From NCBI GenBank assembly GCA_951406725.2, contig OX597818.1, positions 137,888,001-137,952,000 on the forward strand: DNA of 64,000 bases, read 5' to 3'. This document shows positions 25,355-28,884 of the stretch, piece after piece. Within the stretch, counting starts at the first letter, position 1. The number at the start of each line of letters is the position of its first letter. A model generated the notes under the pieces. It did no database searches, had not been told where the DNA came from, and worked only from the letters and a program-made list of their open reading frames with translations. Source of the DNA: Octopus vulgaris (lineage: Eukaryota). Made by a program: the position numbers and the translations under genes.

Positions 25355-25411
<57 letters not shown>

Positions 25412-25692
25412 ACAATTGAGGGTAAAATTAATTAATTATTAATCAATTTCACCAAGTGTTCAGTATGCAAAGGGACCATTTAAGGCGAATTCAAATTATT
25501 ACATTATATAAAAGGGCTTAGTAAAATAAATTACTTCGCCGCATACTGAACTCATTAGAAATAGCAGCTAAAAAACTTTTTAAAGCTATTTCTAATACTT
25601 AAAGAAAATCTCTCTCATATATAGCGCTTGCTTAATTCAACTCACAAAAGTTTGGGGGTAAGGACATTAAAAAATCAAATGCTAAGGTTATT

Positions 25693-25744
25693 TGAGTACG
25701 TACGTTTCAAGATTAGTCAAAGCAACATTTCTCTCTTCAGCTCA
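25693..25744 (-). ncRNA. Type I hammerhead of array unit 1 (also at 26238, 26783, 27328, 27872)
   Basis: Minus strand: tgag CTGAAGA gagaaatgttgctttgactaatctt GAAA cgtacg TA ctca. Confidence 0.72.
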
Positions 25745-28026
25745 TAAATTCCTTGGTTTGGATTTGGAAACACTGAAAGTAAGAACTTACCCTTTCGAAG
25801 ATCCGCTCTCAACTACCAGTGCCAACGAATCCAAATAAGCAAGTGAATCATTTCTGCTCTCCCCTTTCCACCAGCGTGGGTTAAAATCATCAAACGCTAT
25901 GCTTATTTCGGTAAAATCCGAAGCATTAATTAGAGGGAGATTAATTATAATTTCAACAATTGAGGGTAAAATTAATTAATTATTAATCAATTTCACCAAG
26001 TGTTCAGTATGCAAAGGGACCATTTAAGGCGAATTCAAATTATTACATTATATAAAAGGGCTTAGTAAAATAAATTACTTCGCCGCATACTGAACTCATT
26101 AGAAATAGCAGCTAAAAAACTTTTTTAAAGCTATTTCTAATACTTAAAGAAAATCTCTCTCATATATAGCGCTTGCTTAATTCAACTCACAAAAGTTTGG
26201 GGGTAAGGACATTAAAAAATCAAATGCTAAGGTTATTTGAGTACGTACGTTTCAAGATTAGTCAAAGCAACATTTCTCTCTTCAGCTCATAAATTCCTTG
26301 GTTTGGATTTGGAAACACTGAAAGTAAGAACTTACCCTTTCGAAGATCCGCTCTCAACTACCAGTGCCAACGAATCCAAATAAGCAAGTGAATCATTTCT
26401 GCTCTTCCCTTTCCACCAGCGTGGGTTAAAATCATCAAGCGCTATGCTTATTTCGGTAAAATCCGAAGCATTAATTAGAGGGAGATTAATTATAATTTCA
26501 ACAATTGAGGGTAAAATTAATTAATTATTAATCAATTTCACCAAGTGTTCAGTATGCAAAGGGACCATTTAAGGCGAATTCAAATTATTACATTATATAA
26601 AAGGGCTTAGTAAAATAAATTACTTCGCCGCATACTGAACTCATTAGAAATAGCAGCTAAAAAACTTTTTTAAAGCTATTTCTAATACTTAAAGAAAATC
26701 TCTCTCATATATAGCGCTTGCTTAATTCAACTCACAAAAGTTTGGGGGTAAGGACATTAAAAAATCAAATGCTAAGGTTATTTGAGTACGTACGTTTCAA
26801 GATTAGTCAAAGCAACATTTCTCTCTTCAGCTCATAAATTCCTTGGTTTGGATTTGGAAACACTGAAAGTAAGAACTTACCCTTTCGAAGATCCGCTCTC
26901 AACTACCAGTGCCAACGAATCCAAATAAGCAAGTGAATCATTTCTGCTCTCCCCTTTCCACCAGCGTGGGTTAAAATCATCAAACGCTATGCTTATTTCG
27001 GTAAAATCCGAAGCATTAATTAGAGGGAGATTAATTATAATTTCAACAATTGAGGGTAAAATTAATTAATTATTAATCAATTTCACCAAGTGTTCAGTAT
27101 GCAAAGGGACCATTTAAGGCGAATTCAAATTATTACATTATATAAAAGGGCTTAGTAAAATAAATTACTTCGCCGCATACTGAACTCATTAGAAATAGCA
27201 GCTAAAAAACTTTTTTAAAGCTATTTCTAATACTTAAAGAAAATCTCTCTCATATATAGCGCTTGCTTAATTCAACTCACAAAAGTTTGGGGGTAAGGAC
27301 ATTAAAAAATCAAATGCTAAGGTTATTTGAGTACGTACGTTTCAAGATTAGTCAAAGCAACATTTCTCTCTTCAGCTCATAAATTCCTTGGTTTGGATTT
27401 GGAAACACTGAAAGTAAGAACTTACCCTTTCGAAGATCCGCTCTCAACTACCAGTGCCAACGAATCCAAATAAGCAAGTGAATCATTTCTGCTCTCCCTT
27501 TCCACCAGCGTGGGTTAAAATCATCAAACGCTATGCTTATTTCGGTAAAATCCGAAGCATTAATTAGAGGGAGATTAATTATAATTTCAACAATTGAGGG
27601 TAAAATTAATTAATTATTAATCAATTTCACCAAGTGTTCAGTATGCAAAGGGACCATTTAAGGCGAATTCAAATTATTACATTATATAAAAGGGCTTAGT
27701 AAAATAAATTACTTCGCCGCATACTGAACTCATTAGAAATAGCAGCTAAAAAACTTTTTTAAAGCTATTTCTAATACTTAAAGAAAATCTCTCTCATATA
27801 TAGCGCTTGCTTAATTCAACTCACAAAAGTTTGGGGGTAAGGACATTAAAAAATCAAATGCTAAGGTTATTTGAGTACGTACGTTTCAAGATTAGTCAAA
27901 GCAACATTTCTCTCTTCAGCTCATAAATTCCTTGGTTTGGATTCGTTGGCACTGGTAGTTGAGAGCGGATCTTCGAAAGGGTAAGTTCTTACTTTCAGTG
28001 TTTCCAAATCCAAACCAAGGAATTTA

Positions 28027-28078
28027 TGAGCTGAAGAGAGAAATGTTGCTTTGACTAATCTTGAAACGTACGTACTCA
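28027..28078 (+). ncRNA. Type I hammerhead of the inverted units (also 28572-28623)
   Basis: CTGAAGA 28031-28037, GAAA 28063-28066, palindromic ACGTACGT stem III, GTA cleavage triplet. Confidence 0.72.
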
Positions 28079-28821
28079 AATAACCTTAGCATTTGATTTT
28101 TTAATGTCCTTACCCCCAAACTTTTGTGAGTTGAATTAAGCAAGCGCTATATATGAGAGAGATTTTCTTTAAGTATTAGAAATAGCTTTAAAAAAGTTTT
28201 TTAGCTGCTATTTCTAATGAGTTCAGTATGCGGCGAAGTAATTTATTTTACTAAGCCCTTTTATATAATGTAATAATTTGAATTCGCCTTAAATGGTCCC
28301 TTTGCATACTGAACACTTGGTGAAATTGATTAATAATTAATTAATTTTACCCTCAATTGTTGAAATTATAATTAATCTCCCTCTAATTAATGCTTCGGAT
28401 TTTACCGAAATAAGCATAGCGTTTGATGATTTTAACCCACGCTGGTGGAAAGGGGAGAGCAGAAATGATTCACTTGCTTATTTGGATTCGTTGGCACTGG
28501 TAGTTGAGAGCGGATCTTCGAAAGGGTAAGTTCTTACTTTCAGTGTTTCCAAATCCAAACCAAGGAATTTATGAGCTGAAGAGAGAAATGTTGCTTTGAC
28601 TAATCTTGAAACGTACGTACTCAAATAACCTTAGCATTTGATTTTTTAATGTCCTTACCCCCAAACTTTTGTGAGTTGAATTAAGCAAGCGCTATATATG
28701 AGAGAGATTTTTTTAAGTATTAGAAATAGCTTTAAAAAAGTTTTTTAGCTGCTATTTCTAATGAGTTCAGTATGCGGCGAAGTAATTTATTTTACTAAGC
28801 CCTTTTATATAATGTAATAAT

Positions 28822-28884
<63 letters not shown>

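Follow-up and report, generated by a model that had tools for sequence, protein, structure and literature searches.

A young family of putative hammerhead retrozymes in Octopus vulgaris with two-ended, Penelope-like insertions

The 64,000-nucleotide stretch of the Octopus vulgaris genome analysed here (contig OX597818.1, positions 137,888,001 to 137,952,000; hereafter the window, numbered from its first letter) carries at 25410–28822 a ~3.4 kb array of units that each contain a hammerhead ribozyme motif. The original prediction described this array as a retrozyme-like tandem repeat of near-identical, non-coding 544–545-bp units. The units have this length and are 99.3–100% identical to one another, but they run head to tail only within two inverted arms, so that the whole is not a single tandem array. 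The long arm, of 4.65 units, lies on the minus strand (25410..27943), and the short inverted arm, of 1.63 units, lies on the plus strand (27936..28822). Both arms are 5′-truncated, and their 5′ ends meet head to head with an 8-nt overlap of microhomology (27936..27943). Both 3′ ends face (TA)n target sequence, at 25274..25409 on the left and at 28823..28880 on the right. Counted from the predicted ribozyme cut, the outer (3′) end of the long arm at 25410 falls at ~+290 (the long end, A), and that of the short arm at 28822 falls at ~+204 (the short end, B). The inversion and the two fixed ends, both missed by the original prediction, are the most informative features of the locus.

The motif tgag-CTGAAGA-25 nt-GAAA-cgtacg-TA-ctca occurs in seven letter-identical copies, as predicted, with five on the minus-strand arm and two on the plus-strand arm. 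Positions are given in conventional hammerhead numbering, and cuts are placed by the NUH rule. The first plus-strand copy is a type I hammerhead with an extended stem I at 28017..28087 (core motif 28027–28078; predicted cut after 28074, at GUA) and the palindrome ACGUACGU in stem III; the second lies at 28572..28623, with its predicted cut after 28619. Minus-strand copies occupy 27872..27923, 27328..27379, 26783..26834, 26238..26289 and 25693..25744, with cuts predicted after 27876, 27332, 26787, 26242 and 25697, respectively. Cut site to cut site, the plus strand contains a 545-nt monomer (28075..28619) that folds far better than shuffled sequences (z = –6.3); folding is also more favourable for the hammerhead strand than for the complementary one (–148.7 vs –121.4). 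The unit has a GC content of 33%, and the longest stop-free frame in its circularised form spans 62 codons, 25 from Met. Each unit also holds one conserved 3′ module, at 28176..28370 in the plus-strand arm, which may be the region where a reverse transcriptase (RT) binds and starts. It comprises a hairpin (28176–28217), end B (~28272–28278), a second hairpin (28319–28351) and end A (~28362–28370); the ~95-nt stretch from end B to end A is here termed the tail.

The array belongs to a dispersed family. A search with the hammerhead pattern gave 2,033 exact matches in the genome, compared to 0 for a reversed control pattern, and the motif is therefore not a chance occurrence. A DNA search returned 1,279 candidate places, and the best 40, when scored, were arrays 95–100% identical on many contigs, in agreement with the dispersed tandem copies anticipated by the original prediction. 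Since the first 100 hammerhead matches fall in ~40 loci, extrapolation suggests a family of ~800 loci. Whole units measure 541–564 bp (153 units from 61 arrays), and arrays 99–100% alike to that of the window already hold 6–9 units. The unit is also present in contigs of public runs under five organism labels; these include runs presumed to be RNA, whose contigs cover the unit and are uninformative on transcription, strand, ends or circles. Within the window, an older two-armed insertion of the same family lies in (TA)n at 19371..19997, with ends B and A. This copy is 84–95% identical by piece and belongs to a ~560-bp subfamily with a CUGAUGA core and a GUU site. Motif, dispersal and non-coding unit together support the predicted kind, a retrozyme with a type I hammerhead and a palindromic stem III: the window copy is a young member of the animal retrozymes of the non-LTR (long terminal repeat) kind, and its family is dispersed and protein-free. 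Neither a cephalopod retrozyme nor a two-armed retrozyme insertion appeared in the titles and abstract openings of the literature searched, which left most subscription journals outside.

To characterize insertion anatomy, 101 insertions of at least 250 bp were mapped in 99 loci. Four sets were pooled: the 40 best DNA matches, the window among them (a young-biased set); 38 successive loci on contig C1 located through the hammerhead pattern; 20 loci chosen with a motif that lies beyond the hammerhead; and the older copy in the window. Outer ends cluster at two positions relative to the predicted cut: A at ~+292 (placed by blast at +284 to +300, values enlarged by overlap with the TA tract) and B at ~+198 (mostly +192 to +209). 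An inverted, 5′-truncated copy is present in 73 of the 101 insertions, and in 70 of these one arm ends at A and the other at B, with no case of A+A. The other three are a B+B call produced by an A arm split by a later insertion, a four-part insertion with B and A outside, and one cut short. One-armed insertions make up the remaining 28 (15 A, 10 B, 3 other). Neither arm is preferred, the longer one ending at A in 34 of the 70 A+B insertions. A TA-rich flank occurs on at least one side of 100 insertions and on both sides of 86; target-site duplications are unreadable because the target is itself (TA)n. The inner ends (148 ends) are spread over the whole unit, and most arm joints share 0–8 overlapping letters. 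Among the loci (labelled L below), L056/L057 and part of L050 are duplications and not independent insertion events. Separately, three independent inversion joints, in L209, L227 and L282, coincide at a TAAT-like microhomology that lies between stem II and the hairpin of end A.

Two-ended insertions of this type are the Penelope 'tail' signature. Penelope-like elements (PLEs) are described as carrying an inverted 5′-truncated copy and a one-sided tail of 30–40 bp (Craig et al. 2021, PMC8557442). In vitro, PAc is reported to cut and extend both strands of AT-rich DNA, and its tail to be delimited by the two internal positions at which RT starts (Frangieh et al. 2024, PMC11167929). The A+B rule would be the expected trace of one cut primed once at each of two such sites.

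The conservation pattern bears on whether the motif is a ribozyme. In the loci chosen with the motif beyond the hammerhead (21 once the older copy in the window is counted, with the hammerhead covered in 19), 0 of 25 positions in the core and stems I and III vary at ≥10%, compared to 101 of 504 elsewhere (p = 0.007, treating related copies as independent). The 11 positions of the CUGANGA / GAAA / UH core are invariant apart from single copies, and variation is found at N7 (A/U/C), H17 (A/U), loop 2 and the first pair of stem II. Stem II is weakly paired, as had been noted from the outset, and stem I continues through an internal loop to AAGG/CCUU. The best two-molecule fold already holds an 8-bp palindrome duplex. 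Folding and conservation fit a weak, dimer-dependent ribozyme. An Rfam hammerhead search, suggested as a check by the original prediction, gave no match in two scans at the gathering score or at E up to 10; the scans of the array returned just (TA)n-driven microRNA and CRISPR noise. The hammerhead call itself is drawn from core letters, pairing and conservation pattern.

The nature of the copied template was probed by comparing the 153 whole units of the 61 arrays. Unit pairs within an arm differ by 0.12% (138 of 218 identical) and pairs across arms by 0.24% (16 of 37 identical; this set includes L064, which is two insertions), compared to a median of 3.9% between arrays and 0.54% between nearest neighbours. 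At 299 of the 305 cut sites the copy reads on upstream into the hammerhead, and a single arm stops within 3 nt of a cut; a footprint of cleavage is thus not seen, and a cut linear monomer is not the usual template. Read-through therefore points to either a closed circle or an uncut multimer. Moreover, subfamily changes are fixed in every rank and in both arms, and the one-unit bottleneck needed for such fixation favours a circle. Both arms exceed one unit in 18 insertions. Variants that repeat along the arms occur with period 2 (L033, L052, L059, L060, L215), 3 (L062, L276) or 4 (L069). In L033, L060, L062 and L276 the variant falls at the same rank on both arms at sites that the two arms cover; these patterns can be explained by multimeric circles or by local duplication. 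In this comparison L041, L227 and position 306 of L062 were treated as alignment artefacts, and one alignment row (L301), which was wrongly oriented, was disregarded. There was no A-to-G excess among 8 array-private fixed changes and 43 singletons, which are small numbers.

A partner enzyme was sought through the 3′ module (+127 to +296, with two hairpins), which recurs at ~70% identity in two or more sister families, whose ends occupy corresponding positions. As a side observation, L137, L173–L202, L181, L095, L324 and L379 have a hairpin-bearing 3′ module in common (~70% or less) and differ in hammerheads and bodies; in one of these families stem II is long, and its basal pair is an A.C mismatch. 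Young PLE families that retain open frames number at least three in the genome. The original prediction had proposed mobilisation in trans by a Penelope-type RT such as the family at 47178, represented in the window (47178–49790, plus strand) by a 5′-truncated copy of a very young Neptune-type PLE in which the RT domain was found. This family has 27,081 first-look candidates, with 85 scored copies at 99%, and full copies have frames of ~1,200 codons. The window copy bears a CUGUUGA-core hammerhead near 49660 and reaches its 3′ end in (TA)n ~105 nt later; of the 33 loci in which the family's end motif was found, nearly all show a single end site. It is not supported as the mobiliser, given its different hammerhead and 3′ end, its single end site and the lack of shared tail sequence; the Penelope type of the insertions stands, but not the attribution to this family.

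The second family, also Neptune-type (781 aa; L160–L168), is young and intact, and has the same end on both arms in L165, its sole two-armed full-length locus. Inverted arms of Neptune-type elements are under-counted here, because loci were chosen for long open reading frames (ORFs) and have limited flanks. A motif scan found no canonical hammerhead in L160–L168; a CCAAT/CRE-like repeated stretch was seen in the 3′ region. The third family is of Hydra type, with a 717-aa open frame, copies 97–99.8% alike and (TA)n flanks (for example L370, G000:C8:30169276-30172782). Its protein gave no Pfam match and contains the RWK, DKT and CxCx5C motifs of Hydra. In keeping with an octopus host, the genome holds a 26-letter Hydra motif that matches Hydra-1_Obim (supplement of PMC8557442) letter for letter. 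The elements carry a CCGAUGA hammerhead with a long stem II and frequently form head-to-head pairs; their 5′ ends are known from two partial tandems alone. Their long and short ends lie ~70 nt apart and are paired long with short in 6 of 6 two-armed loci. By layout only, this young Hydra-clade family is the best partner candidate; the partnership is unproven because the two-end rule is the same but no sequence is held in common. Words apparently shared between its tail and the 3′ module fell to shuffle level and were discarded.

These comparisons, by nucleotide and profile, covered 73 Neptune-type or GIY-YIG loci, and, for Hydra, 30 + 40 mostly decayed Hydra-like loci (overlapping sets) and 30 more Hydra loci. 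In the compared PLE loci every occurrence of the 3′ module was a distinct insertion with (TA)n on its borders; this was read in L137, L156, L240, L324, L095 and L379 and taken from the match table for L301/L328. One degenerate Hydra pattern gave no matches. Three family motifs likewise gave 0 matches in the supplement of PMC8557442, where line wrapping can hide matches; the octopus Naiad 3′ ends printed there look unrelated by eye, and the 3′ end of Hydra-1_Obim was compared by its hammerhead row alone.

We consider it probable, on balance, that the family is a young non-coding retrozyme inserted at (TA)n by a Penelope-like RT-endonuclease. The likely template of this enzyme is a single RNA of unit length, probably circular and released by the predicted hammerhead, with copying from two fixed starts. 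The copying of a circle is the best-supported route and, on genomic evidence, a reasonably likely one. An array would be transcribed on the hammerhead strand, and its hammerheads are predicted to pair via ACGUACGU as dimers and to cut after GUA or GUU; a host ligase would then close 545-nt circles, sometimes dimers to tetramers. Judging from the insertion ends and the in vitro activity of PAc, the enzyme would cut both strands of the (TA)n target and prime two cDNAs, at ~+292 and ~+198. As the genomic copies show, each cDNA runs through the cut site for up to many units before a variable stop, and the two stopped ends are joined head to head, often via a few common letters.

Several observations weigh against this reading. 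The tail, at ~95 nt, exceeds the 30–40 nt published for PLEs (PMC8557442). No autonomous element with the 3′ module was found among the Neptune-type and Hydra-type loci sampled (Naiad, Poseidon and Nematis lay outside the sample), and the Hydra-type tail aligns to the module no better than shuffles do (z ~0). Across 97 loci, pair 10.1–11.1 is U.U, G.U, A.A or A–U and never G–C, although the G10.1–C11.1 pair is called highly conserved in PMC4209133. Both as a monomer (–4.2 vs –6.3 kcal/mol) and as a double hammerhead (–23.0 vs –25.1 kcal/mol), the hammerhead structure is less stable than the optimal one by 2.1 kcal/mol, the motif on its own gives a poorer fold than shuffled sequences (z +1.55), and the 3′ module (+127 to +296) is as conserved as the hammerhead core. 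Among Xenopus retrozyme dimers, 1 of 9 is reported to have cleaved in vitro (10.64898/2026.07.22.740005), and the PAc hammerhead is described as dispensable for insertion (PMC11167929). As to the template, 12 of 61 arrays have an identical neighbour array, so unit homogeneity partly reflects youth; the repeating variant is mismatched between arms in L059 and L215; and an uncut multimer would likewise be read through the cut site.

The last point leads to an alternative that we regard as unlikely yet worth serious consideration, in which Penelope-type insertion is unchanged but the RNA copied is a linear transcript, left uncut, that reads through a multi-unit source array, the hammerhead being weak, protein-needing or active at another step. 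Such a transcript would account for the read-through itself, the same-rank variant on both arms of L060 and the non-standard 10.1–11.1 pair, and unprocessed RNA is reported as the main PAc substrate in vitro (PMC11167929). However, linear copying with 5′ truncation can just shorten arrays and should let ranks drift, whereas subfamilies differ by several percent and yet all ranks within an array are alike. The window illustrates this: G stands at +70 in every piece of its array, A is found there in most relatives, and in L033 the two letters alternate from unit to unit, a pattern that implies a one-unit bottleneck. We therefore continue to favour the copying of a circle.

Less probable still is that short Penelope-type insertions of 1–2 units later grew and were homogenised locally, by unequal crossing-over or gene conversion. 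A satellite route has been proposed by Li et al. 2026 (10.64898/2026.07.22.740005), patterns of period 3 and 4 that are seen on one arm and not on the other (L069, L276, L059) fit block duplication, and local duplication did occur in L050 and L056/L057. Against this stand the 18 insertions in which both arms exceed one unit while keeping fixed outer and variable inner ends, and the presence of 6–9 units in arrays as young as those closest to the window's.

It is very improbable that the unit is the pseudo-LTR of an autonomous PLE and the arrays its truncated ends, a possibility that the original prediction had itself raised. The end features are indeed all those of PLEs, and 24 of 57 Xenopus retrozyme families are reported to resemble known transposable elements, nearly all of them PLEs (10.64898/2026.07.22.740005). 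Nevertheless, the unit is followed by itself and never by an ORF, with none adjoining at any locus examined (127 loci and the window). At these same loci, tblastn with three PLE proteins matched nothing but decayed or free-standing fragments, no arm having one immediately upstream, and the Neptune- and Hydra-type tails examined lack the 3′ module save as separate (TA)n-bounded insertions. Finally, an assembly artefact, a DNA-level satellite or a Helitron-like repeat with a chance motif is hardly credible: palindromic joints can arise in long-read assemblies as fold-back chimeras, and the missing Rfam match would suit a chance motif, but 70 loci with unequal arms follow one A+B rule, which largely refutes this explanation, the hammerhead core is conserved, and the unit recurs in contigs of public runs under five organism labels.

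A more specific version of the favoured reading can be offered only tentatively. It posits twin-primed rolling-circle reverse transcription, in which both strands of one (TA)n cut would be primed by a dimeric Hydra-type RT-endonuclease, with two starts separated by 95 nt on the same ribozyme-made RNA circle, be it a monomer or a dimer to tetramer. The enzyme would recognise a structured 3′ module belonging to several otherwise different retrozyme families and not its own sequence, and the hammerhead would work without G10.1–C11.1. Circular retrozyme RNA was proposed as a template for PLE enzymes in 2014 (PMC4209133) and 2020 (PMC7229834), and the PLE link has been backed by distribution and phylogeny, with the mechanism called open (10.64898/2026.07.22.740005). 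The element type is thus already known, and the octopus family adds a further family and some tests, not a new class. It offers a countable footprint (the A+B rule, cut-site read-through and identical multi-unit arms), as well as a defined 545-nt substrate on which two start sites are predicted, and the same genome encodes an intact candidate enzyme, so that the copying step is testable in vitro. It also provides a natural predicted hammerhead that lacks the usual first pair of stem II.

Other features were noted in the window. A further fold-back insertion in (TA)n at 49827–50297, with a CUGAUGA hammerhead-like motif and a hairpin like that of the 3′ module, is probably a sister family. Short repeats at 40900–41330 and 41650–41880, with a CCGAUGA / CAUGAUGA-like hammerhead end, adjoin (AAT)n tracts in both orientations, and a minisatellite at 21074–21845 contains 14 copies of a 55-bp unit, 99% alike. 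A promoter scan with bacterial models (the host being an octopus) gave matches at chance level.

Animal non-LTR retrozymes are known from coral, mussel and axolotl, with unit sizes of 170–400 nt (Cervera and de la Peña 2020, PMC7229834), and consensus lengths of 51–972 bp have since been reported (Li, Clavereau and Pollet 2026, 10.64898/2026.07.22.740005). The octopus unit lies above the former range and within the latter, and is not unusually long, contrary to what the original prediction had supposed. Like these retrozymes, the family consists of dispersed, non-coding, low-GC (<45%) tandem units with one type I hammerhead each and a highly self-paired monomer, and it has the short palindromic stem III of amphibian dimer-type ribozymes. 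It differs in that it is known from genome sequence, its ribozyme and circles being predicted, and in its head-to-head two-armed insertion with two fixed ends, which does not feature in the available text of PMC7229834 and 10.64898/2026.07.22.740005. Unlike many of the Xenopus families described in the latter, no homologous autonomous PLE was found among the Neptune- and Hydra-type loci sampled. The inverted arm, the variable 5′ ends, the two 3′ ends downstream of the hammerhead and the AT-rich target resemble those of endonuclease-bearing PLEs (PMC8557442, PMC11167929); the octopus family departs from these in having no RT/GIY-YIG ORF, a tail of ~95 vs 30–40 nt and, in some cases, several whole units per arm. 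Non-autonomous Chlamys elements such as MRC1 (PMC8557442) are likewise PLE passengers with multicopy head-to-tail insertions, but they resemble an autonomous partner at the 3′ end, and no such partner was found here. With the Hydra clade (Hydra-1_Obim, PMC8557442; L370, P0001) the family shares (TA)n targeting and a hammerhead near the 3′ end, and with the 717-aa Hydra-type family it shares long and short ends and their pairing; the hammerhead is different from the CCGAUGA core and long stem II of that family, and tail likeness is at shuffle level. The ribozyme itself resembles the minimal metazoan PLE hammerheads described by Cervera and de la Peña (2014, PMC4209133), which also have a short stem I next to the core and a palindromic 15.2–16.2 plus loop 3, with predicted dimer action. 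At the base of stem II, where those hammerheads have a single extra base, the octopus motif has no G10.1–C11.1 and instead a symmetric 1x1 mismatch or wobble.

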